NCBI GenBank assembly: GCA_041598895.1
Contig: JBFHXQ010000001.1
Span: 1-29,468, forward strand
Origin: Woeseiaceae bacterium
GTDB lineage: Bacteria; Pseudomonadota; Gammaproteobacteria; Steroidobacterales; Woeseiaceae
Reading direction: 5' to 3'
DNA length: 29,468 nt
This document shows, one piece after another, positions 134 to 20,873 of the stretch. Both the position numbers and the translations under genes were made by a program. Within the stretch, counting starts at the first letter, position 1; the number at the start of each line of letters is the position of its first letter. The notes below the pieces were generated by a model. It saw only the letters and a list, made by a program, of their open reading frames with translations, was not told where the DNA came from and did no database searches.

Positions 134-136
134 TCC

Positions 137-216: not shown

Positions 217-294
217 GGCCAGGATTGCTGCGTTGCAATGCATGCTCCTGACCCAAGCCACATGCTAACCCTCTAACTTCGGATCGGCCTGAAA

Positions 295-782: not shown

Positions 783-879
783 CGTTGATGTTCTTGTATA
801 AAATCAACCAAAAGTCAGGTAACTATAAGCAGCCCCCGTCAAATGAAGTTGAATACGCCAAAAGAATAAAGGTGCCGAT

Positions 880-1272: not shown

Positions 1273-1286
1273 TCGGAGAGCAGACG

Positions 1287-1332
1287 GGTTGAACCGATTT
1301 TTGAACTACTAAAATCGGTTCGATCGCTTTTT
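1287..1332 (+). terminator. Probable intrinsic terminator between the convergent VOC and Rieske genes
   Basis: Perfect 11-bp stem GAACCGATTTT (1291-1301) / AAAATCGGTTC (1311-1321) with a 9-nt loop, extendable by wobble pairs, then TTTTT at 1328-1332. Confidence 0.6.
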
Positions 1333-1336
1333 CCCT

Positions 1337-2428
1337 CTAACCGGCTAGCGCCTCTTCGAGCTCCTGTGCGAGCTCGCCGGGTTCCGGCAGATTGCTCAGG
1401 TAATGCTTGCCGTTGACCTGCTCCTGAAATTCTTTCGCCTTTCTGCGCGGATTGTAGAACTGCTTGTACCAGATGCGGCCGCGGCGGAAGCTGCGCTCGA
1501 CCGGCAGCGCCATGATACTGAGTGCGGGCCGCTTGTTGCTCCAGATGTCGAAATCCTGTGCGAATGCCGCCAGCGCGCCTTCCTGGGCCAGTTTGGCATT
1601 TGCGATGTCTTCCTCTGTCGGCGGAGTGTTCGGTGCAAGTGCCAGGTTGTTGTGCCAGGCCTTGACGAGCCCGTCCTCGATCGGCGTATGAAAAATAAAT
1701 TCATAACCGTTCGCCTCCCCGAAGCGCTGCCGTGAAATCAGCATGCCCGGACCTGTGTACCAGGTCGACGTCGTCAGGTACGCGTTGTACATGCGATGGA
1801 AGCCGCCCTGGCGCTGGTAATACACGTGTCCATCGTATTCGTTCTCGAAGTATTCGCACGGCGCGCCGTGGGTCGGTCCGAGGTGGTGGGCATCGGCCAT
1901 GTTGTCGATGATTTCCTGCGGGTGAATCGGTATCTCGCCGAGATGGTCGTAGCTGCCGTTAACCCACTGGGGGTCGTCCCAGGCATCGAGATCCGGCGCG
2001 GCGTACTCGGGCTCGCCGTCCTCGGGATCGTGCCACATCAAGATCGCGCCGAGCTGCTCGACCACGTTATACGAGCGAAGCTTCGCGCCTTTCGGGCACG
2101 GTCCGTCGAAGTACGGTATGTCATCGCAGCGGCCATCCGGTGCGTAGCGCCAGCCATGATACGGACAGCGGATCGAGTCGCCTTCGATCTGCTCATTGTT
2201 CAGCACGATCGATGCGCTCGGACTCGCCGCAAGGTGCGTGCCCATGTGCGCGCAGTACGCGTCGAGCAACACGACCTTGCCGCTCTCGCCGCGATACAGC
2301 GCCATGTCCTTGCCGAAAAAGCGCACGGGAAGCGGGCCGTTATCGAGTTCCTTCGCCTCTGCGATCATGAACCAGCCTCTCGGGAACATGAACTCGCCGA
2401 GATCGAAGTCTTCTGCTTTTGCCTTCAA
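1337..2428 (-). CDS. kshA: Rieske non-heme iron monooxygenase, 3-ketosteroid 9-alpha-hydroxylase oxygenase (KshA)-like, 363 aa
   Basis: Rieske ligands CAH...CPYH; mononuclear Fe motif DNMADAHHLGPTH; FAQDFDIWSNK and WYKQFY match KshA C-terminal motifs; FPRGWF N-terminus. Start moved to TTG 2428, which has GGAGGA 8 nt upstream. Confidence 0.8.
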   Translation of the reverse strand: MKAKAEDFDLGEFMFPRGWFMIAEAKELDNGPLPVRFFGKDMALYRGESGKVVLLDAYCAHMGTHLAASPSASIVLNNEQIEGDSIRCPYHGWRYAPDGRCDDIPYFDGPCPKGAKLRSYNVVEQLGAILMWHDPEDGEPEYAAPDLDAWDDPQWVNGSYDHLGEIPIHPQEIIDNMADAHHLGPTHGAPCEYFENEYDGHVYYQRQGGFHRMYNAYLTTSTWYTGPGMLISRQRFGEANGYEFIFHTPIEDGLVKAWHNNLALAPNTPPTEEDIANAKLAQEGALAAFAQDFDIWSNKRPALSIMALPVERSFRRGRIWYKQFYNPRRKAKEFQEQVNGKHYLSNLPEPGELAQELEEALAG

Positions 2429-2486
2429 GGTTTGAGTCCTCCAGCGTGTGCACTCGCTGCGCGGCGGGCATCGTCGCACAGTGTCA

Positions 2487-3188
2487 TCATCGGTCGCCGA
2501 CGTCGCGCGCGCGTGCCGCTATACCGTCAACCGTGTAGTTGACGAAGTACCTGAAATTCGTGTCAAGATCGAAGTCGTCATCATCGAGGCTCAGCGCACT
2601 GAGCGTCGGCAGCTCCTCGGTACCGGTTTCGAGCTTTTCTGCGAGGCGCGCATACGTCGGAGTCGAACCACCCGCAATTTCCGCACGCGTCTGCAGTTCC
2701 TGGTGCACGTAGCCGACGACGTTGTTGACGAGGAAGGCGTGCGCGCGCGCCGCTTCGCGCGGGCTGAAGCCGAACTCGACGAGTATTTTGGTTGCTTTTT
2801 CGAGGCGCTCGAAATCGGGGTCGAGTGCGGCCTGCGCGTATTGCAGCAGCTCGGGATTGTCGAGGAACGCGCCGCGGTAGAAGCCGGCCAGTTCGACGAG
2901 CCAGTCCCGCCAGGACAGACCGGCCGGCGACGGCATGTCGCCGACGCGCTCGGAGAGATAGGACGCGTAAATGCGCCGCAGGCCGTCGAGCCCGCCCGTG
3001 TGGCGATAGAGCGTCGTCACGTTGACGTCGAGCTCGCCGGCCACGGCGTGCATGCTCACCTCGCCGCTTTTGCCAACCCGACGCACCGCCTGCTCGATCA
3101 GCTCCCCGTTGATAGACGGCGTGCGCCCGCGTCGCGACGTGCGGCCGACGTGGGCCGTCGACGCTGCCGATTGTCTGCTCTTCGCCAT
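2487..3188 (-). CDS. TetR/AcrR family transcriptional regulator with TetR_C-type ligand domain, 233 aa
   Basis: HTH VSMHAVAGELDVNVTTLYRH; C-terminal WRDWLVELAGFYRGAFLDNP...GFSPREAARAHAFLVNNVVG pattern; start set at ATG 3188, downstream of the palindrome and -10 box. Confidence 0.88.
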   Translation of the reverse strand: MAKSRQSAASTAHVGRTSRRGRTPSINGELIEQAVRRVGKSGEVSMHAVAGELDVNVTTLYRHTGGLDGLRRIYASYLSERVGDMPSPAGLSWRDWLVELAGFYRGAFLDNPELLQYAQAALDPDFERLEKATKILVEFGFSPREAARAHAFLVNNVVGYVHQELQTRAEIAGGSTPTYARLAEKLETGTEELPTLSALSLDDDDFDLDTNFRYFVNYTVDGIAARARDVGDR

Positions 3189-3206: not shown

Positions 3207-3235
3207 CCAATTTTGCATTATAAATGCAAAATTGG
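3207..3235. promoter_or_regulatory. Operator palindrome 1 (CCAATTTTGCATT-ATA-AATGCAAAATTGG) overlapping a minus-strand TATAAT for tetR-kshA
   Basis: Perfect 13-bp inverted repeat; ATTATA at 3217-3222 is TATAAT on the minus strand; 19 nt upstream of the tetR start. Confidence 0.85.
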
Positions 3236-3258: not shown

Positions 3259-4287
3259 TCAGGGGCTGTCCGTTGCATCGGTCTGCCAGAAATCGGGGAC
3301 GCCTGGATCGGAGCGTTTGATGAAGCGCTGCAGGAAGCGGATGACGTCCGCAATTTCCGTCTCCGGGAAATCGGCGAGCAGCTGTTCCTCGATTGCTTTC
3401 GATCGCGCAAGCAGCGAGAGGTACAGCTCGCGCCCCTTGACCGTGATCGCGTACTGCATGCCGTCGTGCGTTTCGGTCACGAGACCTTTGCCGATCATCG
3501 CATGCAGCGTCCCGTGATCCGGTGCGCGTCCCGTATGCTCGAGACGCACCTGCAGTGCCTGCAGCGACATCGGCCCGCCAAGGCCGAGCAACGTCAGCGT
3601 CAGATATTCGCTCTCATCGATATCCGCGCTCGCCCACGCATCGCGCAGCGGTGCGGATGCCTGAAAATGGGCCCGCGCAATCAGGTAGAGAAAGAAGTTT
3701 TCGGTGAACGTCCCGTGCGCAACATCGACGCCGGCGCCCGGCTTTTCACCTTTGCCCTTACTCTTCGCCAATGCGTAGCTACCACCGTGAAAAACCAGCG
3801 GCGGCTCGTCGGTCTTCTCGTAGTCCAGGACCTGGCCCACGAAGATCAGGTGATCACCGCCCTCGTAGGTGTGCGTCGTCCGGCACTGAAAGCGAGCGGC
3901 ATACGCCGGCAGCAGCGGAACGTTGCCGACGCCGCGCGTCCACTCCTGACCCGCGAACTTGTCGCTGCCCGCACTTGCAAAGCGCGCGGACAGCGCCTCC
4001 TGCGACGCGCCGAGGACGTGCACACAGAAATGGCCCGACTCCCGAAACGCGGCCATCGACCGGGCACTCTTCGCGAGGGACCAGAGCACTAGCGGCGGGT
4101 CCAGCGACACCGAATTGAAGCTCGATGCCGTTACGCCCACCGGTTCTCCATCGGCGTCCAGCGTCGTAATGACCGTGACGCCCGTGGCAAACTGGCCGAG
4201 CGCCTGGCGAAAATCATGGGCATCTCGGGCGTTGATCGGGGCCTCCGGGGCGGCTTCGCTGAGGGGAGCAGCAAAGCTCACCCTCAT
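3259..4287 (-). CDS. Flavin reductase (HpaC/HsaB-like) fused to a C-terminal MarR-like winged-helix domain, 342 aa
   Basis: FRQALGQFATGVTVIT, TASSFNSVSLDPPLVLWS, EGGDHLIFVG and PPLVFHGGSY flavin-reductase motifs; the last 150 aa (3259-3708) are MarR-like (YLIARAH...KGLV...YAITVKGRELY). Start set at ATG 4287. Confidence 0.88.
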   Translation of the reverse strand: MRVSFAAPLSEAAPEAPINARDAHDFRQALGQFATGVTVITTLDADGEPVGVTASSFNSVSLDPPLVLWSLAKSARSMAAFRESGHFCVHVLGASQEALSARFASAGSDKFAGQEWTRGVGNVPLLPAYAARFQCRTTHTYEGGDHLIFVGQVLDYEKTDEPPLVFHGGSYALAKSKGKGEKPGAGVDVAHGTFTENFFLYLIARAHFQASAPLRDAWASADIDESEYLTLTLLGLGGPMSLQALQVRLEHTGRAPDHGTLHAMIGKGLVTETHDGMQYAITVKGRELYLSLLARSKAIEEQLLADFPETEIADVIRFLQRFIKRSDPGVPDFWQTDATDSP

Positions 4288-4388
4288 CGAAAAAACCGTG
4301 AATTTGATACGAATTAGGCTAGTTAGTTTGATATTATAGCCGATTATATACAATTTCTAGCTATTATTTTACGAATTTGGGAAAAAAC
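4288..4388. promoter_or_regulatory. AT-rich divergent promoter region
   Basis: About 29% GC by hand count; TTTGATA direct repeat (4303-4309 and 4328-4334); imperfect inverted repeat GGCTA(4317-4321)-N15-TAGCC(4337-4341). Confidence 0.55.
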
Positions 4389-5150
4389 GTGAGCGACCTT
4401 TCGAATCGCACAATCGTCGTCACCGGCGGCAGCCGCGGCCTGGGCCGCGGCATCGCGGAGGGTTTCCTCGCGGCCGGCGCCGCGGTCATCGTCTGCGGCC
4501 GAACCGAGCCCGACACCCTGCCGAGCGCCGGAAACGCATCCGCGCTGTTCGTCAAAGCCGACGTCCGGGATGCCGCCGACAGCCAGGCGCTGATCGATCA
4601 CGCGGTAAAGGCGACCGGCCGCCTCGACGTATTGGTGAACAATGCCGGCGGCAGTCCGGAGGTAGCGGCAGAAGACGCGTCACCCCGATTTACCGACGCG
4701 ATCATTCGCCTGAACCTGACGGCGCCCGCGGTGCTCAGTCAGCAGGCGTACGCGGCGCTGCGGGACAGCGGCGGCGGGTCGATCATCAACATCGCGAGCG
4801 TATCGGCGATTCGCCCGTCACCCGGCACGGCGGCCTACGGCGCGGCGAAAGCGGGACTCGTCAACCTGACTCGCTCCCTGGCACAGGAGTGGGCTCCCGA
4901 GGTGCGCGTCAACGTCATCATCGCCGGCCTGGCACGCACCGAGGCTGCCGGCGCTCACTACGGCGGCGAAGAGGGCATCCGCAATATTGAAAAGCGCATG
5001 CCGATGCGGCGCATGGCCACGCCGGGCGACATTGCCCGCGCGTGTCTGTACCTCGCGTCCGCCGAAGCCGCGTACGTGTCCGGCGCAACGCTCGAGGTAC
5101 ATGGCGGCGGCGAACCGCCCGCATTTCTCAGTCTGCAACACGATGCCTGA
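4389..5150 (+). CDS. Classical SDR oxidoreductase resembling the mycobacterial Rv3549c-type steroid-cluster SDR, about 253 aa
   Basis: TGGSRGLG, NNAGGSP, RPSPGTAAYGAAK, EWAPEVRVN and YVSGATLEVHGGGEPP match my recollection of Rv3549c. GTG 4389 preferred over TTG 4377. Confidence 0.88.
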   Translation: MSDLSNRTIVVTGGSRGLGRGIAEGFLAAGAAVIVCGRTEPDTLPSAGNASALFVKADVRDAADSQALIDHAVKATGRLDVLVNNAGGSPEVAAEDASPRFTDAIIRLNLTAPAVLSQQAYAALRDSGGGSIINIASVSAIRPSPGTAAYGAAKAGLVNLTRSLAQEWAPEVRVNVIIAGLARTEAAGAHYGGEEGIRNIEKRMPMRRMATPGDIARACLYLASAEAAYVSGATLEVHGGGEPPAFLSLQHDA

Positions 5151-9266: not shown

Positions 9267-10442
9267 TCAGACGATCGTGTTCGGCATGCCGAGGCCGAAA
9301 TTTGCGACCATGCAGCGCATGACTTCCATGACGCCGCCACCGACGGTATTGACCTGGCCGCTTCGGTAGTCGCGCTCGAGATCACCGTGGAATATTGCAC
9401 CGTCGCTCGGGTACTGCACGAGCGCATCTTCGCCGACCAGGTCCAGCAGTCCGCGCAGAACCTCGATCAATTCGAGCGTGTTCTGGAACTTGACGCCCGA
9501 TGCCAGTGCGACGTCGAGATTGCCCTCTTCGATCTGCGTGGCGGTGCGCAGGTTCAAAACCTCCATCGCTTCGAGCCGGCAATACAGCTCACCGACTTGC
9601 GCTCTGACGAGCGGATCCGCGAGTGGGCCGTCGCCAGCTTTGGATTTCCCGTCGAGGAATGCGACAACGCGCCGGAACTGCTTCGCACCGACGACCGTCA
9701 TTGCCGCGAGCGCAACGCGTTCGTGATTGAGCTGCGACGTGATCAGTTTCCAGCCGCCGTTAACCTCGCCGACGACGCGGTTCAGCGGCACCCGGACGTC
9801 TTCGTAATAGGTCATCGTCGTGTCGATGTCGCCGACAGTCCTGATCGGCGCCGACGAAAATCCGGGGTCGCTCGCATCGGCAATCAGTATCGTGATGCCG
9901 TCGGAAGGCCGTTTGACGTCTTTCGAGGTCCTGACCGCGAGCCAGACGTAATCGCAGTCCTGCCCCGAGCTCGTATACAGCTTGTTGCCGTTCACGACGT
10001 AGTGATCGCCGTCGCGCACGGCCGGCATTTTCAGCGAGCCCAGGTCCGTGCCGGCACCGGCCTCCGTATAGCCAACCGCGAAGATGCACTGTCCTCGAGC
10101 GATTTTCGGCAGGAAGAACCGCTTCTGCTCGTCGGTGCCGAAGCGCATTATTGCCGGCCCGACCGTGTTGACCGTGATCAGTGGGAAAGGCGCGTGCGCC
10201 GACCAGGCCTCCTCGAACAGGATGAGCTGCTCGACGGTCGTGTACTCCTTGCCGCCGAATTCCTTCGGCCACCCGAGCGTCAGGATGCCGTCCTGGCCGA
10301 GTCGCGCGATGATCTCGCGGAATTTCGGACCGCCCTCCCGGCCGACCACCTCGGCCACGACGTCGGGCGTCATGAGCGTCTGAAAATAGTCGCGCAGCTC
10401 CAGGCGAAGCTCCCGCTGCGCGGGGCTGAATCGGGTATCCAT
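9267..10442 (-). CDS. fadE26: Acyl-CoA dehydrogenase, catalytic subunit of a heteromeric steroid ACAD (FadE26/ChsE4-like), 391 aa
   Basis: LRLELRDYFQTLMTP, GWPKEFGG, GTDEQKRFFLP, GYTEAGAGTDL, DYVWLAVRT and QLNHERVAL (catalytic Glu). Start moved to ATG 10442. Confidence 0.82.
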   Translation of the reverse strand: MDTRFSPAQRELRLELRDYFQTLMTPDVVAEVVGREGGPKFREIIARLGQDGILTLGWPKEFGGKEYTTVEQLILFEEAWSAHAPFPLITVNTVGPAIMRFGTDEQKRFFLPKIARGQCIFAVGYTEAGAGTDLGSLKMPAVRDGDHYVVNGNKLYTSSGQDCDYVWLAVRTSKDVKRPSDGITILIADASDPGFSSAPIRTVGDIDTTMTYYEDVRVPLNRVVGEVNGGWKLITSQLNHERVALAAMTVVGAKQFRRVVAFLDGKSKAGDGPLADPLVRAQVGELYCRLEAMEVLNLRTATQIEEGNLDVALASGVKFQNTLELIEVLRGLLDLVGEDALVQYPSDGAIFHGDLERDYRSGQVNTVGGGVMEVMRCMVANFGLGMPNTIV

Positions 10443-10474
10443 CGGTCGTCGAGCCTCGGGATTGACGCCAAAAA

Positions 10475-10503
10475 CGAATTTTGCAATTATAATGCAAAAT
10501 TCG
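10475..10503. promoter_or_regulatory. Operator palindrome 2 (CGAATTTTGCA-ATTATAA-TGCAAAATTCG) in the divergent ACAD / DUF35-ltp2 promoter
   Basis: Perfect 11-bp arms with a 7-nt spacer; shares AATTTTGCA-N7-TGCAAAATT with 3207-3235; TATAAT on both strands (+10488-10493, -10486-10491). Confidence 0.88.
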
Positions 10504-10518
10504 CGTGCGAAACACAAC

Positions 10519-10932
10519 ATGGGCAGCCAGACGCCAGGACGCATCCGTCCCGTCGAAAATTACGACTCGCAGCACTACTGGCAGGGTTTGCGCGACGGCA
10601 AGCTCCTTCTGCAGGCGTGCGCGGACTGCGGTGCGCTCCGGCATCCGCCGCAGCCGATGTGCGAACACTGCCAGAGCCTCGACTGGACGACCCTCGAATC
10701 CGCGTGTCGCGGCGCGATTCACAGCTATACCGTCATCTACTACCCGGAGATTCCCCCGTTCGACTACCCGAACGCGATCGTGCTCGTCGACCTCGACGAA
10801 GGCGTGCGCATCGCGTCGCAGCTCGTCAACTGCGATCCGCACGACATCGACATCGGCAAGCGCGTCGTCGCAAACATCGTCGAGGTCGAGCCGGGACTGG
10901 CGCTGCCCCTGTTCGAACTCGTGGATCACTGA
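10519..10932 (+). CDS. Stand-alone DUF35 protein (Zn-ribbon + OB fold), likely aldolase partner, 137 aa
   Basis: CADC...CEHC zinc ribbon, G-x-IHSYTVIY, VLVDLDEGVRIASQL, DIDIGKRV; stop 2 nt before the ltp2 start. Confidence 0.9.
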   Translation: MGSQTPGRIRPVENYDSQHYWQGLRDGKLLLQACADCGALRHPPQPMCEHCQSLDWTTLESACRGAIHSYTVIYYPEIPPFDYPNAIVLVDLDEGVRIASQLVNCDPHDIDIGKRVVANIVEVEPGLALPLFELVDH

Positions 10933-10934
10933 CC

Positions 10935-12116
10935 GTGTCGGCGAGCGGCCACAGGCAGGCGACGATCGTCGGCATCGGCACGACCGAGTATTCGAAGGAC
11001 TCGGGACGCACCGAGATGCGACTTGCCTGCGAGGCGGCGCTGGCAGCCGTCGAAGACGCCGGTCTCGGCGGCGCCGACGTCGACGGCATCGCGACGTTTT
11101 CGATGGACAATAATTTCGAAATAGAGGTGCACCGCCAGATCGGCGGCCGCGAGCTGCGCTACTTTTCGCGCACGGAGTACGGCGGCGGCGCCGCGCTTGG
11201 GCCATTACATCATGCCTACGGCGCGCTGGCGTCAGGTCAGTGCGAGACCGTGCTGATCTACCGGGCAATGAACGAGCGCTCGGGCCTGCGCTTCGGCGGC
11301 GGCCGGATCATGAGTATGAATGCGCTGAACCCGGACATGATCCATTTCAGCCACTATTTTCCGACCGGCTTCATGACGCCCGCGAGCTGGCTTGCAATGA
11401 GCGCGCGACGTTACATGCACCTGTATGGCGCGACGTCGGAAGACTTCGGACGCGTCGCCGTGTCGCTCAGGGATTTCGCGGCGACGAACCCGGCGGCATT
11501 CTACTACCAGCGCCCGATCACGCTCGACGACCATCAACGTTCGCGCATGATCGCGGACCCGCTGCGGCTCTTCGACTGCTGCCAGGAAAGCGACGGCGCC
11601 GTAGCCTTCGTGGTCACGACGGCGGAACGAGCCCGGGATTTGCGAACGGATGGCGTGCGGATAGCTGCCGTACGACAGTGCGCACTGTCCAGCTCACGCC
11701 AGGTCACGGCTTTCTACGGCGAGGATATTTCGCGGTTTCCCGAGTTCGACGCGATGGCCGGCGACCTCTACGCGGCGGCAGACGTCACGGCCGACGACAT
11801 AGACGTCGCGTGCCTGTACGACCACTTCACACCCTCGATTCTCCCGCAGCTCGAGTCGTTCGGCTTCTGCCCGATCGGCGAGGCGAAGGACTTCATCCGC
11901 GACGGACATATCAGCCGCGGCGGCAGGCTTCCGGTCAACACAAACGGCGGCCAGATCGGGGAGGCCTATATTCACGGCCTCAACGGCATCGTCGAGATCG
12001 TGAGACAGTTCCGCGGCGCAGCCTGCAATCAGCTGGACGCGGTCGAGCATGCGCTGGTGACCGCCGGCTCCGGGGTGCCGACCGGTGCCGCGATACTGAG
12101 CCGCCCGGGCCCGTAA
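10935..12116 (+). CDS. ltp2: Thiolase-superfamily steroid side-chain retro-aldolase (Ltp2/Sal-like), 393 aa
   Basis: IVGIGTTEYSKDSGR, YGGGAA in place of the thiolase Cys, YRAMNERSG, PLRLFDCCQESDGA, LYDHFTP and GEAYIHG (both catalytic Tyr), LVTAGSGVPT. GTG start at 10935. Confidence 0.9.
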   Translation: MSASGHRQATIVGIGTTEYSKDSGRTEMRLACEAALAAVEDAGLGGADVDGIATFSMDNNFEIEVHRQIGGRELRYFSRTEYGGGAALGPLHHAYGALASGQCETVLIYRAMNERSGLRFGGGRIMSMNALNPDMIHFSHYFPTGFMTPASWLAMSARRYMHLYGATSEDFGRVAVSLRDFAATNPAAFYYQRPITLDDHQRSRMIADPLRLFDCCQESDGAVAFVVTTAERARDLRTDGVRIAAVRQCALSSSRQVTAFYGEDISRFPEFDAMAGDLYAAADVTADDIDVACLYDHFTPSILPQLESFGFCPIGEAKDFIRDGHISRGGRLPVNTNGGQIGEAYIHGLNGIVEIVRQFRGAACNQLDAVEHALVTAGSGVPTGAAILSRPGP

Positions 12117-12127
12117 GAGGAAACGCC

Positions 12128-13093
12128 GTGCAAGCGCAGTCGCAGCCAGTACAACAGCCGCCCGCATTTCTGAGCACGCTCAGGAACGAACACCGCTATT
12201 TTCAGTCCCTGCTCGACATTTGTCGCGACCACATAGATCGTCTGGCCGCCGGTTCCGACACAGACCTCGACGTACTCGAGGATGCACTGCGTTATCTCGC
12301 AGAGTATCCGGAGGATTACCATCACCCCCGTGAAGACCTGCTGTTCGACCGGCTGCGCTCTGTCGACCGGAGCAGCGGCCCCATTCTCGACAAGCTGCTC
12401 TCCGGTCACGACACCATCCATACGGACAGTAATGACCTGCATCACCTCGTAATGCGGCTCAACAACGGGGAGACGCTGGACCGCTCGCTGCTCGCCGCAA
12501 AACTGGCGCGTTTCGTCGACGGCTACGAAACGCACATGCGCGATGAAAACGAAGTGGTCTTCACTCGCGCAGAACAAGAGCTGGATCCGGAGGACTGGGA
12601 GGACCTGGATGCGGCGCTCGAACACGTCGAGGATCCCCTGTTCGGGACCCGGGTGCGGCGCCGGTACCGGCGCCTCGCTGCGGTTCTCGAAGCCAGGCTC
12701 GGCGTCGCGCGGCGCGATCTGATCATCGCCGAATATCTGAGCCTCGGCGCCGTCGTCGATACGATGATCAAGCTGTCCGAGACCGGCATCAGTATCGGAT
12801 ACGTCGCATTCGACCGCAGCGCCAAGACCTGGCGCGAAAACCTGGCGACGACGCGCAAGGGGCTGGCGTCCGGCCGGGTAACCGATGCAGCAAAACTGCC
12901 GCTGAAGCTTCTGCACAACACGCTCGGCAACATCCGAGGCGGTTTTTCCGACTCCTCGAAGCTCCTGCGCGACGCGGTCACGGACATTCGTACACCGAAC
13001 GACATGCGCCTGGATACGCTCAAGGAGTTACTGCGGGACGAGTGGGGCAGGCGCGAGCCTCGTAAGCGGCGCTCCGCAAAGCAGAACCGGTAG
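12128..13093 (+). CDS. Hemerythrin/HHE-domain protein with a roughly 130-aa C-terminal extension, 321 aa
   Basis: H22, H65-x3-E69 (YHHPRED), H94 and H136-x3-E140 (HMRDE) metal-ligand pattern plus DPLFG; GAGG RBS 7 nt before GTG 12128; 11 nt after the ltp2 stop. Confidence 0.82.
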   Translation: MQAQSQPVQQPPAFLSTLRNEHRYFQSLLDICRDHIDRLAAGSDTDLDVLEDALRYLAEYPEDYHHPREDLLFDRLRSVDRSSGPILDKLLSGHDTIHTDSNDLHHLVMRLNNGETLDRSLLAAKLARFVDGYETHMRDENEVVFTRAEQELDPEDWEDLDAALEHVEDPLFGTRVRRRYRRLAAVLEARLGVARRDLIIAEYLSLGAVVDTMIKLSETGISIGYVAFDRSAKTWRENLATTRKGLASGRVTDAAKLPLKLLHNTLGNIRGGFSDSSKLLRDAVTDIRTPNDMRLDTLKELLRDEWGRREPRKRRSAKQNR

Positions 13094-13096
13094 CCG

Positions 13097-14098
13097 TCAG
13101 CCGGGTTCGGATTCGGCACCGGCCACGGTACGCAAGAGCCCGCGGAATGCGCGCCGCGCAGTGCTCTTGCCCTGCACGACCTGGAATACCTCTGCGGCGA
13201 TCGGCATGTGCACGCCGTGCTTCTCGGCAAGCGCCATGACCGCCGGTGCGCTCTTTACGCCTTCGGCCACCATGAACATGTCCTCGATGATTTCCTCGAT
13301 CGAGCGTCCCCGACCGAGCTCGTAACCGACCGTGCGGTTGCGACTCTGCGCGCTGGTACAGGTCGCAATCAGGTCGCCGGTCCCGGCAAGCCCCGCGAAG
13401 GTCTGCGGCTCGCCGCCCATCGCCACCCCGAGCCGCGTGATTTCCGCGAGCCCGCGCGTGATCACCGCCGAGCGCGTGTTCTCGCCGGCTCCCTGACCGT
13501 CGCCCATGCCCGCCGCGATCGCGATGATGTTTTTTAAAACGCCGCCGAGCTCGCAGCCGATGACGTCGTGATTCGTGTACACGCGAAACAGGCCGCTGTG
13601 AAACAGCTTCTGCAGCTCGGTGACGATGACCTCGTCCTCCATCGCGATAACGCTTGCGGCCGCGAAGCCGGCCATGATTTCCCGCGCCAGGTTAGGCCCG
13701 GTCAGCACGCCCGCAGGGTGGCCGGGCAGTACCTCATTGATGAGCTCCGTCATGCGCTTGCCGGAGCTCAGTTCGAGGCCCTTGCTCAGGCTGATGACGG
13801 GAACCCATGGCCTGATGTGCGGGCGGATCTGCTCGAGTACGCTGCGAAACGACTGCGACGGGATGCCCATTACGATCACGTCCATCGAGGCGACGGTTTC
13901 CTCGATGTCGGACGTTGCCCTGAGGCGTTTCGGCAAATTGGCGCCCGGAAGGTATTTCTCGTTCGTGTGCCGGGAGTTGATCTCGTCGACCGTCGCCGAA
14001 TCTCTTGCCCAAAGCGTGATCGGCGCATTTTTTGCAATTAGCGCCGCCACGGTCGTGCCCCACGATCCGCCGCCGAGCAGCCCTGCCTTAAGGTTCAT
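13097..14098 (-). CDS. gpsA: NAD(P)H-dependent glycerol-3-phosphate dehydrogenase, 333 aa
   Basis: GGGSWGT, SLSKGLE, GPNLARE, ELGGVLKNIIAIAAG, GLAGTGDLIATCTS..SRNR, AEGVKS; GAGGGGG RBS. Confidence 0.96.
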   Translation of the reverse strand: MNLKAGLLGGGSWGTTVAALIAKNAPITLWARDSATVDEINSRHTNEKYLPGANLPKRLRATSDIEETVASMDVIVMGIPSQSFRSVLEQIRPHIRPWVPVISLSKGLELSSGKRMTELINEVLPGHPAGVLTGPNLAREIMAGFAAASVIAMEDEVIVTELQKLFHSGLFRVYTNHDVIGCELGGVLKNIIAIAAGMGDGQGAGENTRSAVITRGLAEITRLGVAMGGEPQTFAGLAGTGDLIATCTSAQSRNRTVGYELGRGRSIEEIIEDMFMVAEGVKSAPAVMALAEKHGVHMPIAAEVFQVVQGKSTARRAFRGLLRTVAGAESEPG

Positions 14099-14164
14099 AT
14101 TGCCCCCTCATCGCCGCACCCAAATTCTTATTTTGCAATCGCTCTGCGGCTTCGCCGAGTTCGG

Positions 14165-15646
14165 TCAGGCGGACCGGGCCTTCGCCGCGCCTTTCTTGCC
14201 GCGCTTCTTCCGGCCTGCCGGCGCCTTTTGTTCGACGCTCGCCGCGCCGAGCAGCTCTTCGAATGAGTCCCGAAGGCAGCTCACGAAAAACGCGATGTCC
14301 GGCATGATCTCGCGCGTCGAGGTAACGCCAAAGGTCATTTCCCCGTTATAGCTCGGCGTCGCAATGAACAGCCCCATACCGTTGTTCAGCGGCGCCATGC
14401 CGAAGTTCGTAATCTGCAGCGCACCGTTCATGTACATCGGCACCTGCGGACCCGGCACGTTCGAGATGAACAGGTTGCAGACGCGCGGGCCCGTGCCGAC
14501 GCGCGACACGAGCCGGCCTGCGAGTGCCTGCGTCGCGGACGGCACGTGGCGGCTCAGGTCGGTCATCAGTCGTGCCGAGATGCCGGACTTCGCCTCCTTG
14601 GTCGCCTGCGTCGTTTCCCGAATCGCCGCCAGCCGTTCGATCGGGTCTTCGACATCGGTATGAATCGAGGTCGTCATCGCCGTAATGTTGTTTCCAGGAG
14701 CCTCGTCGCTCGAGCCCGGTCTGCGGGCGTTTATCGGCACCCATGCGACCAGCGGCTCGTCCGGCAATTCGTCGTGGGCCACAAGGTATTTGCGCAAACC
14801 GCCTGCGCAAACCGCGAGCACGACGTCGTTGATCGTAGCCCCGGACACGGCCTGCCGGATCTGCTTGAAACCCGCCAGCGGGAACCGCGCCCCGTCAAAC
14901 ATCTTGTGTGGCGACACCTCGCGATTGAAACGGGTTTTCGGCACGTCGGACCTGTCGTCGTCGCCCGACCCCAGGTTTTTCTTCACCGCGTCGAACACCA
15001 CCGGCGTCGCTCGCAGAAGCATGGTGCCCATACGCACCGGGGAGGTGGCGTTGGCGACGATTCCCCGCCTCAGCATGGTTACAAACGAAGGCTCGTCGTA
15101 GATATTCATGTGCATCGACGAAATATCGACGGCCGGAGTGCCGTTCGCGTCGATGTCCATGATCGCCGCAAAGAACTGGTTGGCCGATGCGCCGTCGACT
15201 GCCACGTGGTGGATCTTCGTGCCGAGTGCATAGCTTCCCTTCGGTACGCCCTCGACGTTATCGAGCCCCTCGACAACGTACATCTCCCAGGGCGGCCGAT
15301 TCATGTCGAGTGGCCGCGAGTGATAGCGCGCCATATGGATACACAGCTGCCGCCAGTCGCCCGGGTGTGGCAGCCGCGCATGCCGCATGTGGTATTCGAG
15401 ATCGAAAAATTCGTCATCGACCCAGTACGGATAGTCCAGCTCGAAGGGCACGTGCACGAGGCGTCGCTTGAACAGCGGTGACGTGTGCAGCCGACTCTCG
15501 ACGTGCGCGATGATGTCCTTGAAGCGGACCTGGCCGCCGGGTGCCGTCGACGGATCGAATATTCCGAAGCCGGTAACGTGGGTCAGGTTATTGCCCGTTT
15601 CCATATACAGAAACGCGGCATCCTGAGCTTTCAGCTGTTGTAACAA
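14165..15646 (-). CDS. Wax ester synthase / diacylglycerol acyltransferase (WS/DGAT), 493 aa
   Basis: QDAAFLYME, RPLDMNRPPWEMYVVEGL, HHVAVDG (HHxxxDG), ATINDVVLAVCAGGLRKYL, NLFISNVPGP; GAGGAG RBS 6 nt before TTG. Confidence 0.95.
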   Translation of the reverse strand: MLQQLKAQDAAFLYMETGNNLTHVTGFGIFDPSTAPGGQVRFKDIIAHVESRLHTSPLFKRRLVHVPFELDYPYWVDDEFFDLEYHMRHARLPHPGDWRQLCIHMARYHSRPLDMNRPPWEMYVVEGLDNVEGVPKGSYALGTKIHHVAVDGASANQFFAAIMDIDANGTPAVDISSMHMNIYDEPSFVTMLRRGIVANATSPVRMGTMLLRATPVVFDAVKKNLGSGDDDRSDVPKTRFNREVSPHKMFDGARFPLAGFKQIRQAVSGATINDVVLAVCAGGLRKYLVAHDELPDEPLVAWVPINARRPGSSDEAPGNNITAMTTSIHTDVEDPIERLAAIRETTQATKEAKSGISARLMTDLSRHVPSATQALAGRLVSRVGTGPRVCNLFISNVPGPQVPMYMNGALQITNFGMAPLNNGMGLFIATPSYNGEMTFGVTSTREIMPDIAFFVSCLRDSFEELLGAASVEQKAPAGRKKRGKKGAAKARSA

Positions 15647-15703
15647 GTGCTTCTCCTCGAAAACGAGCGGGCGAGCGTCTCTCGAAAACTTACGCCCGAT
15701 AAT

Positions 15704-18043
15704 TCACGCTGCGACCGTCGCCAGCGAACGTATCCGCGTCATTCGGCGCGCCAGCTCCGCGGAGTCTGCTGCAGCGACGCGGCGCAGCTCCCCGTTCGCC
15801 GGATTGCCTGCTCCGGTCAATCCCATGTGACTGAGCTGGCGATAACCGTTCGCGAACAGCACCTTCGAGATCGACGCGCTGTTGCTGATCCGGCCCTGCA
15901 GCCGCCGCTGCTGGCCGAGCTTCAGGCTGCGAGACACGCAGTCCTTCTCGTCGATTCCCTCGTCGGGCTCCAGGCCCTGCACGATGTCGGCGACCACACC
16001 GTATGCCTCGACATACGGCAGCAGCGTCGCATGCGCTACCAGGGGGCGCATTTCTGCAAGAAAAGCCGCCGCGGATTCGCCGCCCGGAGCAATTCTTGCC
16101 TCCCAATCCGGCGCATATCTGGCGAGCTCCTCTTCGAGCTGGCGACGAAACTCGGCTTTCGCCGCATAAAAGAATTCGAACTTGAAGATATCACGCAAGC
16201 GTTCGGTCTCCTGCCAGAAGGCGTCCATGCCGCCAGCATCGTCCAGGTTCGTCGCACCGGCCAGGGCAAGTTCCAGTATTGCTTTGTTGACGAAATAGTG
16301 AACGATCGTGTTTCGATAATAGCCCGCCGTGGCGTAGCCGTCCTCCGGAATGCCGTACACCGTCTCCGGGCCCTCGTCATAGCGCATGACCAGGCCCCGC
16401 GCGATCGTGATGCGCGCGAGTCTTACGACCTGCCGGTCCCGGCGTTTTTCGAAATAATCGGCCATGCGGACGTTGCGAACCCGCAGCCAGTCGACCAGCG
16501 ATCGAACCTCGTCGCGGAATTCCTCGAAGGTCAATGCCCTGGGGGCGGCGCCGAGCAATGCCATGCAGGCGAGCGAAGCGAACGTAACGGGCGTGACATC
16601 GTTGACGCGAACGGCAACCTCGAACGCGATTTTCGGAACGTCGACATCGTTGACGTGCGGGACAGCGCCCTTTACGACCACCGGCTTGCAGAAATCCAGG
16701 TACACGCGACCCTTCGGAGCGCGGAGTTTGCGAATATAGCCCAGGAACCAGCCGAAGCTTTCGGGCCGTTTCGAAGCACCGGCCTCCTCCAGCGCGTATT
16801 CGGCCGCCTCGCCGATCAGGTCGTAGCTAATCGATACGGGGATGAAGTGCAGATCGGTCGTCCCGGTCGCATGCGCGGCTTCGAGGACGTACTTGATCAT
16901 GCCGTAACGCGGCGGCATCAGCTTGCCGACCCGCGACCTCGTGCCTTCGAATGCCCAGCTGAACGGAAAGCGTTTCTCCATCAGGTAGCCGAGATAGTGC
17001 CGAAACACCAGCTTGTACACCGGGTTGTCGGCAAACGTCCGGCGTATATAGATGACGCCGGAGCGGCGACCGAGCGTGCCAAGGCCGAAAAACGCCATGT
17101 TGATGCCGCCGAAGGAATGCGGCGCCGGCAGATCGTTCTCGTACAGGATGGACAGCACGGCCATGCCGTCGACGTGAGACTTGTGCGACCACAGCAGGGC
17201 CGTCGGATTGTCACGCATGATTGCTCGCGTGCGCTCGACGTCGTCGGGATCGGTCACGATGTCCTTCTCGTAACCGAGCGACACGATTCTGCGGGTTACA
17301 GCCCCCATCCAGTCGATGAAAAACGGATTCGGCTGCGCGATCATCTCCTTCATGTAGCGATCGGCTTCCTCACGCAGCGCAGCAACTGGCCGGCCGAGTT
17401 CCGCGGCCAGTTTTTCCAGCGCCTCGCTGAACTGCGGGCTCGCCCGCAGGCTTTCGGCGACGTAACGCGGAACCTTGTAGCGATTGCCCTTGAGGCGCCG
17501 CTCGGCAACGTCGAGCGCCAGACCCGCCTGGCGCAGCACGAACGCCGCGAACTTGTCGCGCGCCCCGGCAGCGTCCGTGGGAACGGCAAGGCTCTCGAAC
17601 CGGTCGCGCAGCTCGTGAAGCGTGGCAGACGCGCCCACGATACAGTGCGCCCGTCCGGGATCCATTTTCAGAATTGCGCGTGCCGCGAGTTTGCCGGGAT
17701 GCCTCGAATCGCCAAGAAACAGGTCGCGCAGCCGCGGCGTGTTGCGCCGGGCCGATTCACGCGGCAGCCAGACGACGCGCGCCGGCACCACGCGCGTCTC
17801 GCCGGCACCCTCCAGCTTGTCCGGCAGCTCCCCGAGCTTAAGCCGTCCCTTCACGCCGAAAAGAATGGGCAAAACCACCGCGTCGACAGACTGTTCCTGC
17901 TGCGCAGTTGATTGGCGCGTATCTTTGACCCAGCTCTCGAGCAGCTCCTGCTCCACGCTGTGACTTGCGTCCAGGAGAAAGAGGACCGGCCCTGCCGACA
18001 CATCGGGCAGGGGATTCGTGACGGAGTCGAGTTTCGCTGCCAC
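15704..18043 (-). CDS. plsB: Glycerol-3-phosphate acyltransferase (PlsB, resembling mycobacterial PlsB2), 779 aa
   Basis: HKSHVD (HxxxxD), FGGINM, IYIRR, FEGTRSRVGKL, PVSISYD, YYRNTIVHYFV; the N-terminal extension resembles PlsB2. Confidence 0.9.
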   Translation of the reverse strand: MAAKLDSVTNPLPDVSAGPVLFLLDASHSVEQELLESWVKDTRQSTAQQEQSVDAVVLPILFGVKGRLKLGELPDKLEGAGETRVVPARVVWLPRESARRNTPRLRDLFLGDSRHPGKLAARAILKMDPGRAHCIVGASATLHELRDRFESLAVPTDAAGARDKFAAFVLRQAGLALDVAERRLKGNRYKVPRYVAESLRASPQFSEALEKLAAELGRPVAALREEADRYMKEMIAQPNPFFIDWMGAVTRRIVSLGYEKDIVTDPDDVERTRAIMRDNPTALLWSHKSHVDGMAVLSILYENDLPAPHSFGGINMAFFGLGTLGRRSGVIYIRRTFADNPVYKLVFRHYLGYLMEKRFPFSWAFEGTRSRVGKLMPPRYGMIKYVLEAAHATGTTDLHFIPVSISYDLIGEAAEYALEEAGASKRPESFGWFLGYIRKLRAPKGRVYLDFCKPVVVKGAVPHVNDVDVPKIAFEVAVRVNDVTPVTFASLACMALLGAAPRALTFEEFRDEVRSLVDWLRVRNVRMADYFEKRRDRQVVRLARITIARGLVMRYDEGPETVYGIPEDGYATAGYYRNTIVHYFVNKAILELALAGATNLDDAGGMDAFWQETERLRDIFKFEFFYAAKAEFRRQLEEELARYAPDWEARIAPGGESAAAFLAEMRPLVAHATLLPYVEAYGVVADIVQGLEPDEGIDEKDCVSRSLKLGQQRRLQGRISNSASISKVLFANGYRQLSHMGLTGAGNPANGELRRVAAADSAELARRMTRIRSLATVAA

Positions 18044-18054
18044 TCGCCTGAGCC

Positions 18055-18201
18055 CTAACCGGTATCCGGAGTCACGCTTTTCCCGTTGCCGGCCGCGGCG
18101 CGCTTCTTCCCGGGCCGCTTGCTGCCCGTGGCCACGCTTTTCTTCGCGGGTCGCTTCGGCCCCTCTGCTGCCCGTTTCTTCGCGGGTTTCTTGCGCGCAG
18201 T
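18055..18201 (-). repeat. Three K[KR]P[AG]KK units encoding a histone-like tail
   Basis: KKPAKKRAA / KRPAKKSVA / KRPGKKRAA at the C-terminus of HAD-PlsC. Confidence 0.8.
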
Positions 18202-19641
18202 CGCAACGCCGTCATCGCGCTGCCCCAGCGCCTTCAGGTACATCGCACGCACGTCTGCAACATGCTCGTCCAGCGTTTCACGTGTCCATGCACTCGTGTC
18301 GACGGGCGGCAGCACTTCGACCTCGACGGTTGCCCGGCGATAGACGAATTCACCCTTCGGGGCAACGTCGATGGCATTGTGAATCACGATCGGCACGATC
18401 GGCACGCCGGCCTGCATGGCGAGGTGGAACGCACCCTTTTTGAACGGGCCGACTTTGGGGGACACGGTACGGGTCCCTTCGGGCGCAATGAGCACCGATT
18501 TCTTCTGCTTGCGAATGACGTCGACCAGCGGCCTCATCGCCTCGATCGCACTCGACGTGTTGTCGCGATCGATCAGCACCGAACCACCGAATTCCGCAAT
18601 TTTCTTCATCAGCGGAAACTTGCCGATCTCCGCCTTGCCAACGCTCGCAATGTCCTTGCGCAGCAGCTTTGTCGTGATGATCATGTCGGCCTTGCTCTGG
18701 TGATTGAAGATGAACACGGCCGGGCGCTGCTCCCAGAGATAGCGCTCGCCCGTAACGTTCATTTCGAGGCCGACGAGAGCGCTCGCGACATCTGCGAACA
18801 GAGACGCCGAAAAATTCTGGGCCTCCCGTTTCGATCCGCTCAGCGCCCAGATTGGCAGCGCCGCCGCGTACACCGGGATGAGGCTCATGTCGGCAGCGAA
18901 CGCGCGCAGGTAGTCAGCCGCGGCGGGCCGGCTGCGGCTCTTGAAGCGGCGCACGGGCCAGCCGCGTTCCTCCGCGATTGCGGCGAGCTTCGAGTTCGGG
19001 TTCAGGGGTTGCGGATGGCCGACGCTCTCGAGCAGCTCGATATCGTCGTCGCTGTCCGTATAGAAAAAACTCTGCTCGAGATCGACGCCCCGTTCTGCCG
19101 CCAGCGTTTCGGCGGCGATGACCTTGCCCTCGCCCCAGCAAAGCGGCCTTACTATGTCGCCGGTGAACTCGCCGTTTGCGACCTCGAGACGACTGCACAG
19201 GACGTGCTCGATATCCAGGTCGCGAGCCGCCGGTGCAACCTGATACGGCGTTGCCGACGAGACGATTGCAACCGTGTGACCCTTGTCGAGGTGAGCTTTT
19301 ACGAGCGCCCGCGACTCAGGATAGATGAGCCGCGCAATTTGTTTTTCGTAGACCTCCTCGCCGAATTCGACGTAGTCGTCCTCGGGGATACCCTTCATCA
19401 GTTTCGCGCTCGCCGACATCAGCCCGGAGAAGCCGATCTTGCGGAGGCTGAAACTGCCGATCGTCGAAACCGTTTCGACGAAGTCGCTGACCGACATTTT
19501 TCCCTGCTTGATCTGTTCCTTGAAAAACTCGGTCGCGGAGAATCCGGCCATTAGCGTACCGTCGAAATCGAAAAATGCACCGATCTCGGGGCCATCCGGC
19601 GCTTTTCGAATCGAACGCGTTACATCGGCATACAAGGCCAT
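18055..19641 (-). CDS. plsC: Bifunctional HAD-IB hydrolase / 1-acylglycerol-3-phosphate acyltransferase with a basic C-terminal tail, 528 aa
   Basis: HAD motifs DFDGT, IVSSAT, GEGK and YTDSDDD; AGPAT motifs NHQSKAD, PEGTR and FKKGAFH. Confidence 0.92.
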   Translation of the reverse strand: MALYADVTRSIRKAPDGPEIGAFFDFDGTLMAGFSATEFFKEQIKQGKMSVSDFVETVSTIGSFSLRKIGFSGLMSASAKLMKGIPEDDYVEFGEEVYEKQIARLIYPESRALVKAHLDKGHTVAIVSSATPYQVAPAARDLDIEHVLCSRLEVANGEFTGDIVRPLCWGEGKVIAAETLAAERGVDLEQSFFYTDSDDDIELLESVGHPQPLNPNSKLAAIAEERGWPVRRFKSRSRPAAADYLRAFAADMSLIPVYAAALPIWALSGSKREAQNFSASLFADVASALVGLEMNVTGERYLWEQRPAVFIFNHQSKADMIITTKLLRKDIASVGKAEIGKFPLMKKIAEFGGSVLIDRDNTSSAIEAMRPLVDVIRKQKKSVLIAPEGTRTVSPKVGPFKKGAFHLAMQAGVPIVPIVIHNAIDVAPKGEFVYRRATVEVEVLPPVDTSAWTRETLDEHVADVRAMYLKALGQRDDGVATARKKPAKKRAAEGPKRPAKKSVATGSKRPGKKRAAAGNGKSVTPDTG

Positions 19642-19742
19642 TGGTTTTGTCCCATCGAATGTGCCGCCGCCCTAACCGGGCTACGACGTTTTTTTATATT
19701 TTCCCCTGCGCCGCGCGGGTCGACCGCAGGGGCCGCGCGCCG

Positions 19743-20873
19743 CTAGCCGGCGCGTGCCTCTCTCTCTTGTTGAGTTCGCGCAGCGCTGTCGCTCTCGCTG
19801 TGACGGCACATAAACTTCGCTGCCTCGTCCAGAGCCTCTTCCGCGTCGGGAAGCAGGTGTGCATACATCTGGAACACGTGCACCATGCCCGGCCAGGTCT
19901 GCAGCTCGACCGGCGAACCGGCGCTTCGCGCCTTGTTCACGTAGCGACGAGCGTCATCCAGCAGCATTTCACAGTCGCTCGCTTGCACGAGCGTCGGCGG
20001 CAGTCCGCCTAAATCACCGAAAAGCGGCGACACGAGCGGATCACTCGGGTTACTGCGCCCGAGCAGCCAGCCGAGCAGCGCCTTCAGCGTCACGGGCAGC
20101 CGTGCGAACGGGCCCAATGCAGGTCCCAGCAGCAGGTCAGTGGCTATGTTCTTGCGAAAGCTCGTGCCGGACAAGGTCGAGTCGGTCGACGGCGAAAACG
20201 CGACGACGGCATCGGCCGGGCGCGTGCCCACGTCGCGCGCCCACGCAGACAGCATCAGCGTCAGGTTCCCCCCGGCGGAATCGCCGGCGACGAAGAGGCG
20301 CCGTGCCTCGCGCGTACCGTCAGGCCGGTTGTCGAGCAGCCAGCGATACGCCGCCTGGCAATCGGCGATGGACGCATTGCGCCGATGCTCCGGCATCAGC
20401 CGGTAATCGATGGAGAGCACGGAGACACCCGAGCGCTTGCCGAGCGCCGCTGTGAGCATGCGCGAACTCGTCGGGCTGCCGGCGTAGAAGCCGCCGCCGT
20501 GGATGTAGAGCAGGCGCCGGTCAGGGTCCGAGTTCGGCGCGAGCACCCATTCGGCACGCACGCCCGCGGCGTCCGCCGGCGTAACGGTGACGCCGAGCTC
20601 CTCCGGCGAGACCGGCGCCCCGAACAGGCCCTCGTCCATGAGGCGCCGAAGCACCTCGACCTGGCGTGACCGGGGAACCTCCTGGACGCGGGCCACCATG
20701 GTATCGACGCGCGCCGCAAGTTCCCCGGTGCCGGGACCCGGCTCGCTGCGGCCGCCGACGTTGGGAACCACGGGCTGATCGAAGCGTGAGTGGTCCGGTC
20801 CGCACAGGAACACCCTGACGGCAAGCCACAGGCTCGCGATCAGCAACAGCGTAATCGTCAAAAACATCAGCAT
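19743..20873 (-). CDS. Alpha/beta hydrolase (HSL/family IV esterase) with an N-terminal membrane anchor, 376 aa
   Basis: HGGG oxyanion motif, GDSAG nucleophile, LLDD and MVHVFQ catalytic Asp/His regions; the first 23 residues are hydrophobic. Confidence 0.9.
   Translation of the reverse strand: MLMFLTITLLLIASLWLAVRVFLCGPDHSRFDQPVVPNVGGRSEPGPGTGELAARVDTMVARVQEVPRSRQVEVLRRLMDEGLFGAPVSPEELGVTVTPADAAGVRAEWVLAPNSDPDRRLLYIHGGGFYAGSPTSSRMLTAALGKRSGVSVLSIDYRLMPEHRRNASIADCQAAYRWLLDNRPDGTREARRLFVAGDSAGGNLTLMLSAWARDVGTRPADAVVAFSPSTDSTLSGTSFRKNIATDLLLGPALGPFARLPVTLKALLGWLLGRSNPSDPLVSPLFGDLGGLPPTLVQASDCEMLLDDARRYVNKARSAGSPVELQTWPGMVHVFQMYAHLLPDAEEALDEAAKFMCRHSESDSAARTQQEREARAG

Follow-up and report, generated by a model that had tools for sequence, protein, structure and literature searches.

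In a stretch of 29,468 nucleotides from a Woeseiaceae bacterium (GenBank assembly GCA_041598895.1, contig JBFHXQ010000001.1, positions 1 to 29,468; hereafter the window), one gene encodes a protein of 321 residues, denoted P0001, that joins a hemerythrin-like iron domain to a C-terminal extension related to the phasins of polyhydroxyalkanoate (PHA) granules. At the level of sequence, P0001 and its relatives are established as conserved two-domain proteins in which an HHE domain of the di-iron type precedes a diverged Phasin_2 domain. When this architecture is read together with its genomic setting, we see about an even chance (probability roughly 0.5) that the protein is tethered by its phasin domain to neutral-lipid bodies, is induced with steroid catabolism and plays a redox or sensing role in lipid turnover. 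The source is a metagenome-assembled genome (MAG) that is 62% complete and comprises 280 contigs. The open reading frame (ORF) had been drawn in a preliminary description made from the DNA letters alone, and this gene model proved real, including its distance from the stop of the preceding ltp2 gene and a GAGGA ribosome-binding site of its own (Table 1); the peptide quoted there corresponds to residues 230-284.

The N-terminal domain is a member of the hemerythrin HHE family. Residues 15-147 match PF01814 with 48.3 bits (cut-off 25.3), and H22, H65, H66, E69, H94, H136 and E140 are invariant in 20 full-length family members and in the paralogues, which bears out the complete HHE ligand set that had been read from residues 1-190. 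These residues follow the pattern H...HxxxE...H...HxxxE and, as judged from their conservation, fit a di-iron site. The AlphaFold (AF2) model has predicted local distance difference test (pLDDT) values above 90 over most of residues 13-165, and by Foldseek residues 14-190 align with hemerythrin-like proteins of ~180 residues with template modelling (TM) scores of up to 0.82, normalized by the hit. The highly conserved helix DPLFG...RRYRRLA (residues 169-187) is part of the iron domain and is present in stand-alone relatives of ~190 residues. The nearest solved structures are NMB1532 (2p0n) and PF0695 (3cax), both of unknown function; 2p0n is matched by profile with an expectation value (E) of 1.6e-4 and gives a TM score of 0.73, normalized by the target, with 18% identity in the fold alignment. 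YtfE and FBXL5 are weak profile matches (E 0.06-0.13 for YtfE), and a phmmer search of the PDB with the N-terminal domain gave no match. NMB1532, PF0695 and, more distantly, YtfE/RIC and FBXL5 share the helical bundle and the ligand pattern with P0001; they differ in that they are matched by profile only and that none of them carries a phasin-like C-terminal domain.

The ligands do not favour O2 carriage. The canonical set of O2 carriers (H, HxxxE, HxxxH, HxxxxD) is not found in the family, in which position 98, where a histidine would complete HxxxH, is H, Y, Q or E and the last ligand motif is HxxxE instead of HxxxxD. Because of this HHE-type pattern and the variability of H98, P0001 is not placed with the O2-carrying hemerythrins. 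The HHE class includes sensors and reactive-species enzymes, such as FBXL5, YtfE and the mycobacterial hemerythrin-like proteins, rather than O2 carriers. An identity as an RIC/YtfE/ScdA repair protein was rejected because P0001 lacks ScdA_N; PF01814 was the sole family reported by the Pfam scan.

The extension is as well conserved as the iron domain. About 30 homologues of 300-320 residues keep it and cover 92-96% of P0001, and the mean column identity is 60% in the C-terminal alignment compared with 57% for the whole protein. An origin by strain-specific read-through or artefact, which the preliminary description had left to be checked, was rejected on this ground. Two long helices are predicted, comprising residues 207-247 and 257-307; a separate model of the C-terminus likewise folds into a hairpin, formed by its helices 2-59 and 69-119 (pLDDT 68, predicted TM score (pTM) 0.40). 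The invariant features of the hairpin are the turn L257-P258 and the motif P290-x3-R294.

Comparison of alignments links this hairpin to the phasins. We aligned the C-terminal alignment of the fusion family (A2) by hhalign with an alignment of true phasins (A4), comprising the stand-alone phasin P0070 and 22 relatives. The match reached 89.4% (E 2e-6, score 42.9) over 99 columns, corresponding to residues 205-303 of P0001. Three of the five invariant A2 columns (L257, P290 and R294) align with the phasin-invariant L98, P131 and R135, and the TWRENL block of A2 aligns with AWETNV of the phasins. In the controls, reversed alignments gave 14-16, and 60 column shuffles together with 60 shuffles of 7-column blocks gave at most 20.4 (mean 11-12, standard deviation ~2.3). 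When P0031, P0029 or the four most distant rows were left out, the same register was recovered at 82-86% with scores of 39-41. The extensions of the paralogues P0104 and P0105, used as a negative control, gave 0.1-0.3%, by which they were ruled out as kin of the P0001 extension or of the phasins.

Profile searches led to the same family. PF09361 was the only recurrent Pfam family among the C-termini, of which 7 of 20 matched at E <= 10, with 26.1 bits for P0031 (cut-off 24.9; profile positions 11-100), 22.2 for P0068, 19.3 for P0029 and 15.3 for P0050; the C-termini of P0001 and P0029 match each other at E 2e-19. From 1.84 billion representative proteins, the C-terminal profile retrieved 42, at least 27 of them with a hemerythrin domain, and found P0070 (78.9 bits on PF09361) at E 4.7e-4. 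The top row of the ESM Atlas for the C-terminal model, itself of modest confidence, was a Phasin_2 cluster (TM 0.74). The assignment of residues ~205-303 to a diverged Phasin_2 (PF09361) domain is thus well supported, and the resemblance to phasins first noticed by eye holds at the level of homology. With the C-terminal profile, a sequence search of the PDB returned designed helical proteins only (E >= 0.01), and an ESM Atlas feature search with residues 195-310 gave no usable match. An apolipophorin-like fold, put forward earlier as something to look for, did not emerge, as Foldseek with the whole model matched the iron domain alone and listed Apolipophorin-III at a non-significant E of 1.5.

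P0001 resembles the Phasin_2/TIGR01841 phasins, such as Cupriavidus necator PhaP1 and here P0070 and the other members of A4, in its hairpin of ~100 residues, in the L...P-x3-R signature and in the W-x-x-N block; phasins are also frequent among the predicted-fold neighbours of its modest C-terminal model, with weak E-values. It differs from these small stand-alone coat proteins in that the domain forms the C-terminal part of a larger polypeptide and lies below Pfam detection, and in that no PHA synthase was found in the present genome or in several of the other carriers.

Databases already contain the two-domain architecture, under automatic names, and the clade of the window is a diverged branch of it. 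The ESM Atlas holds a cluster of 111 members of ~338 residues, named 'putative TIGR01841 family phasin', of which 99% have PF09361 and 98% PF01814 and to which the C-terminal model aligns with a TM score of 0.71. P0031, a protein of the same kind, is a phmmer match of P0001 at E 4.9e-37 over 94% of its length. The order of the two domains is the same in the cluster and in P0001, but the cluster members score directly on PF09361 whereas the window's clade, with relatives 53-59% identical, stays below threshold and is the one that lies beside a Kennedy/WS-DGAT operon. The earlier statement that no protein of this architecture was described consequently stands for the literature, in which our searches turned up neither a hemerythrin-phasin protein nor a hemerythrin on bacterial lipid droplets, but not for the databases. 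Among the other 200 genomes sampled from the order and the other 399 from the class, none was found to have the fused form; 52 of those 200 order genomes do match, as a rule through the stand-alone hemerythrin relatives of ~190 residues. The DNA itself occurs in several marine metagenomes. Engineered phasin fusions, in which a functional domain is brought to the inclusion surface by a phasin anchor (PMC5658603), offer a parallel; P0001 is natural, its anchor is C-terminal, it bears an iron-type domain and its binding to inclusions is predicted.

The genomic setting points to storage lipids. As described initially, steroid-type genes (a KstD-like flavoprotein, two acyl-CoA dehydrogenases, DUF35 and ltp2) lie upstream, and a Kennedy-type cluster lies downstream on the minus strand, with the stop of the convergent gpsA gene 3 nt from that of the fusion gene. 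The order of steroid genes, hemerythrin, (CoA-transferase), gpsA and then WS/DGAT, GPAT, HAD-acyltransferase and lipase is kept in L001, L003, L018 and L019, whose fusion proteins are 53-59% identical to P0001. Kennedy-type clusters have been described in marine Gammaproteobacteria with no hemerythrin mentioned (PMC10351704). The connection with storage-lipid genes suspected for the window recurs in several unrelated contexts of the family. The gene for the distant member P0044 is divergent from genes for TetR and for a PhaI/PhaF-type phasin of 186 residues, 44% identical to the PF05597 phasin of L040; downstream of it follow an alpha/beta hydrolase, an Abhydrolase_3 lipase and a convergent WS/DGAT. 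P0050 has a PF05597 phasin, TetR, an ABC1 kinase and a hydrolase as neighbours, and a patatin-like lipase gene is convergent to a family member in L021 and in L043. P0025 and P0061 have unrelated neighbours. Hemerythrin paralogues with other C-terminal tails adjoin lipid-ester genes as well: P0105 of the present genome (L030) directly follows a lipase gene, and P0104 (L006) is flanked by a hydrolase and an HAD-acyltransferase. In having such PhaI/PhaF-type phasin and TetR (PhaD-like) cassettes close to WS/DGAT, with distant fusion members divergently paired to them, L040 and L042 resemble the association seen here; the window differs in that it has no PF05597 phasin and that its own link between TetR and an operator concerns steroid genes.

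Gene content of the carrier genomes points in the same direction. WS/DGAT was matched in eight of nine other carriers, with 2-19 matches apiece, and also in the present genome (three matches on three contigs) compared with 15 of 299 sampled genomes of the class; in the sole carrier lacking a match, the contig is cut inside gpsA. KshA_C was found in all five carriers tested and in this genome, compared with 4 of 300 sampled class genomes. PhaC_N occurs in two of five carriers (G598, which is the closest carrier genome, and G599) and was not found in G600, G601 or G602, class III PHA synthase in none of five, and Phasin_2 in one of five. In G600, with contigs of up to ~1 Mb or more, 19 WS/DGAT matches and a PF05597 phasin were found, but PHA synthase was not detected.

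These counts bear on whether P0001 could be a genuine PHA-granule phasin that coats polyhydroxyalkanoate granules and happens to carry an iron domain. The homology is indeed to a PHA-granule family, G598 and G599 have a PhaC_N synthase, the present genome is only 62% complete, and in Bradyrhizobium the hemerythrin-HHE gene bll2471 belongs to the PhaR regulon, with a PhaR box and a 5.9-fold derepression when phaR is mutated (PMC6201568). We nevertheless hold this explanation to be improbable: searches of the present genome yielded no PhaC_N, class III synthase or Phasin_2 gene, PhaC_N is missing from G600, G601 and G602 and class III synthase from G600, G601 and G609, G600 is rich in WS/DGAT, and no pha gene adjoins the fusion gene in any context examined. 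Owing to these neighbours and to the gene content of the carriers, neutral-lipid bodies are the likelier target.

Regulation appears to connect the gene to steroid catabolism. The only promoter-like site facing DUF35-ltp2-hemerythrin is overlapped by the palindrome ATTTTGCA-N7-TGCAAAAT, a candidate steroid-regulon operator of which none would be expected by chance and which is kept at the same place upstream in four relatives (L001, L002, L003 and L018). No terminator stands out between ltp2 and the fusion gene, which appears to be the last gene of a unit starting at this operator-covered promoter. The same operator also precedes a TetR gene of the steroid cluster, so that production of the protein would coincide with the induction of steroid catabolism. 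In L001 and L002, DUF35-ltp2 has collapsed (9795-9998 in both) to a remnant ORF of 67 residues in which the beginning of DUF35 runs into the end of ltp2, whereas the hemerythrin gene is intact and the operator kept; survival of both argues that the hemerythrin gene is independent of ltp2, and the fusion gene probably stays under the steroid-type operator. The proposal that the gene bridges steroid and lipid-storage functions gains from its place downstream of an operator common to steroid-catabolic genes and beside a storage-lipid cluster. In related contigs, the operator sits at the divergent promoter between acyl-CoA dehydrogenase and DUF35 and near a TetR gene.

The iron and phasin-like domains are connected by a hinge, LIIAEYLSLGAVVDTMIKL, which is the most hydrophobic stretch of P0001 (Kyte-Doolittle 19-residue mean 1.50; 1.3-1.8 in relatives) and in which A201, E202, L204 and L206 are nearly invariant; in the AlphaFold model, pLDDT is below 50 over residues 193-214. 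Such a segment could anchor the protein in the inner membrane, where it would serve steroid enzymes acting at the membrane or on lipophilic substrates, for instance by supplying or sensing O2. The bacteriohemerythrin that acts with particulate methane monooxygenase is a parallel for this arrangement, the hydrophobicity of the conserved hinge comes near the usual transmembrane threshold, the gene is downstream of a steroid-type operator, and all five carriers tested have KshA. The hinge nonetheless remains below that threshold and holds the conserved acidic residues E202 and D211, the ligand pattern with its variable H98 is unlike that of O2-carrying hemerythrins, and distant family members have no steroid genes nearby, so that we give membrane anchoring little credence.

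We favour instead a model in which the iron domain is probably held at the surface of hydrophobic storage inclusions by the phasin-like domain, possibly together with the hinge. In this lineage the inclusions would most likely be bodies of triacylglycerol or wax ester that the adjacent Kennedy/WS-DGAT operon produces, and not PHA granules. Phasins on such bodies have precedents: PhaP1, a Phasin_2 phasin, is known to bind triacylglycerol inclusions (Hanisch et al. 2006; pmid 17074898), and in Rhodococcus ruber, too, a phasin has been isolated from lipid inclusions (PMC5658603). The least certain step concerns the role itself. Because lipase, esterase and patatin genes recur as neighbours of family members and paralogues, and in keeping with the biology of the HHE class, the protein is most likely a sensing or detoxifying module for redox state, O2, iron or peroxide at the droplet surface that takes part in storage-lipid turnover. 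A bolder version, which we rate as distinctly unlikely, is that P0001 is an element of the droplet coat that senses O2, iron or redox state through its di-iron domain and in this way controls whether the neighbouring lipases can reach triacylglycerol, wax-ester or possibly steryl-ester bodies; if true, fat mobilization would be tied to respiratory capacity and to steroid catabolism, and P0001 would be the first known case of a sensor that a phasin domain natively anchors to a bacterial lipid droplet.

The proteins that coat neutral-lipid bodies of Gram-negative bacteria are poorly characterized, and in P0001 a metal-binding domain is naturally and conservedly fused to a phasin-type anchor, in bacteria that are rich in WS/DGAT and often lack a detectable PHA synthase. 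If the tethering model is correct, the use of phasin domains would extend from bioplastic granules to fat droplets, proteins active in redox or iron chemistry would be part of the droplets, and a natural targeting tag would be at hand for lipid-body engineering. The finding ties storage-lipid turnover to steroid catabolism in uncultured marine Gammaproteobacteria.

A number of observations weigh against tethering to lipid bodies or against the domain assignment on which it builds. Neither P0001 nor its C-terminus matches any Pfam phasin family, even at E <= 10, the NCBIfam scan gave no match, and P0001 on its own reaches only 3.4% by hhalign. Both C-terminal models are modest (pLDDT 65-79, pTM 0.40), and many proteins contain helical hairpins; of the 30 nearest fold clusters in the AlphaFold database, about half are named phasin or granule-associated, at TM scores of 0.6-0.78 but with weak E-values of 0.16-1.6. 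The amphipathic helices of the preliminary description are present as helices, but their amphipathicity is moderate: the hydrophobic moment of the extension (z ~2) is like that of the iron-domain helices, and also like that of a real phasin, and does not discriminate. In the window, the fusion gene is convergent with the lipid operon and is no member of it, and no RNA run is listed for it. The lack of PHA genes in the present genome is weak evidence, given a completeness of 62%. The co-occurrence with WS/DGAT could be a lineage effect, inseparable from steroid catabolism, because every carrier tested for both has KshA as well as WS/DGAT; the relatedness of the carrier genomes inflates both associations. 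Finally, a large subgroup of the family resides in a housekeeping context (gluQ-dksA-(small Rieske)-hemerythrin-VanY-cysE-PFK) with no lipid genes nearby.

This subgroup, in which the gene often lies beside one for a small divergent Rieske ferredoxin, would suit a soluble cytoplasmic sensor or repair factor without contact to inclusions, in which the hairpin serves only for oligomerization or for docking of a partner such as the Rieske protein, an oxygenase or a lipase. Phasins are known to oligomerize via leucine-zipper-like helices (PMC5658603), KshA-type Rieske oxygenases abound in all five carrier genomes tested, and the iron-centre repair protein YtfE is among the closest solved iron domains, albeit weakly. 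A fully soluble protein makes the conserved hydrophobic hinge hard to explain, however, and lipase, patatin, WS/DGAT or PhaI/PhaF-phasin genes are neighbours in at least five unrelated contexts. On balance, a purely soluble role seems rather doubtful to us, and tethering to neutral-lipid bodies is retained as the preferred reading.

Table 1. Positions of the features discussed, in window coordinates unless another contig is named.
Feature	Position	Strand	Basis or remark
Hemerythrin/phasin-like fusion gene (P0001)	12128..13093	+	GTG start, TAG stop (13091-13093), 321 aa; translation, ~30 full-length homologues
HHE-type hemerythrin-like helical-bundle domain	12161..12697, residues ~12-190	+	Pfam PF01814, pLDDT, Foldseek, PDB matches, invariant ligands
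Moderately hydrophobic conserved hinge LIIAEYLSLGAVVDTMIKL	12719..12775, residues 198-216	+	Kyte-Doolittle, pLDDT, near-invariant residues
Diverged Phasin_2-like domain, two-helix hairpin	12740..13036, residues ~205-303	+	hhalign A2 vs A4, controls, profile search, fold neighbours
Basic tail RREPRKRRSAKQNR, strain-specific	13049..13090	+	absent from 17/19 aligned homologues
Gap between ltp2 stop and GTG, with GAGGA ribosome-binding site	12117..12127, 11 nt	+	read from sequence
DUF35/ChsH2-type OB protein, upstream in presumed operon	10519-10932	+	73% identity to L003's annotated zf-ChsH2/OB_ChsH2_C gene
Ltp2-like thiolase-fold protein, upstream in presumed operon	10929-12116	+	Thiolase_C_1 match
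Palindromic operator ATTTTGCA-N7-TGCAAAAT	10478..10500	.	overlaps -10 box of promoter-like site 10462-10490
Second operator copy, by TetR gene in steroid cluster	3210-3232		
Operator copies in relatives	L001 9755-9777; L003 7798-7820; L018 1024-1046 and 8320-8342		
Convergent storage-lipid cluster	13097..20873	-	Pfam matches; same order in L001, L003, L018
gpsA	13097-14098	-	member of storage-lipid cluster
WS/DGAT	14165-15646	-	member of storage-lipid cluster
PlsB-type GPAT	15704-18043	-	member of storage-lipid cluster
HAD-acyltransferase	18055-19641	-	member of storage-lipid cluster
Abhydrolase_3 lipase/esterase	19743-20873	-	member of storage-lipid cluster
Small Rieske [2Fe-2S] genes	L023 9375-9689; L024 3967-4305; L025 420-752		
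Abhydrolase_3 lipase/esterase and P0105 in L030 (own genome, contig C166)	3068-3991 and ~4009-4869		P0105 17 nt later, same strand

Some further features of the gene and its surroundings were recorded. The basic tail at the end of P0001, pointed out at the start, is present but is not a family feature, being missing in most aligned homologues; if the basic tails of the neighbouring lipid enzymes have a function, the one on P0001 is a recent addition. Judged by identity, the fusion protein is evolving faster than its neighbours, because it is 53-57% identical to its L001, L003 and L018 orthologues compared with 62-88% for the products of the flanking genes. A CoA-transferase family III gene lies between the hemerythrin gene and gpsA in L001 (10948-12081) and L003 (10382-11515) and is absent from the window and from L018. 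The genome G010, which is 99% complete and assigned to the same genus as the MAG (G000), contains neither WS/DGAT nor KshA; the MAG's assignment to the genus, or its binning, may therefore be unreliable and calls for caution.

The PhaI/PhaF-type phasins of L042 (5282-5842) and L040 (4690-5115) have a WLAGLGAYGKA motif and a Lys/Ala-rich tail; both are paired with TetR beside hydrolase, lipase and WS/DGAT genes, with no PHA synthase in view. Within about 1.5 kb of the PF05597 phasins of G598-G600 and G607 there is no hemerythrin, WS/DGAT or lipase gene, and no PF05597 phasin was matched in the present genome (62% complete). In a freshwater subgroup, a small Rieske [2Fe-2S] gene (104-112 residues) is divergent from the fusion gene, near dksA and gluQ; its product could be a redox partner of the fusion protein. 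The paralogue P0105 of the same genome (~286 residues) has an unrelated helical C-terminal extension of ~110 residues. In L006, from the same-genus genome G171, an operon-like arrangement on the minus strand (8-3125) comprises an alpha/beta hydrolase, P0104 and an HAD-acyltransferase; P0104 is a hemerythrin-like protein of 294 residues with a Gly/Ala-rich hydrophobic tail, and the adjoining HAD-acyltransferase is 45% identical to that of the window.

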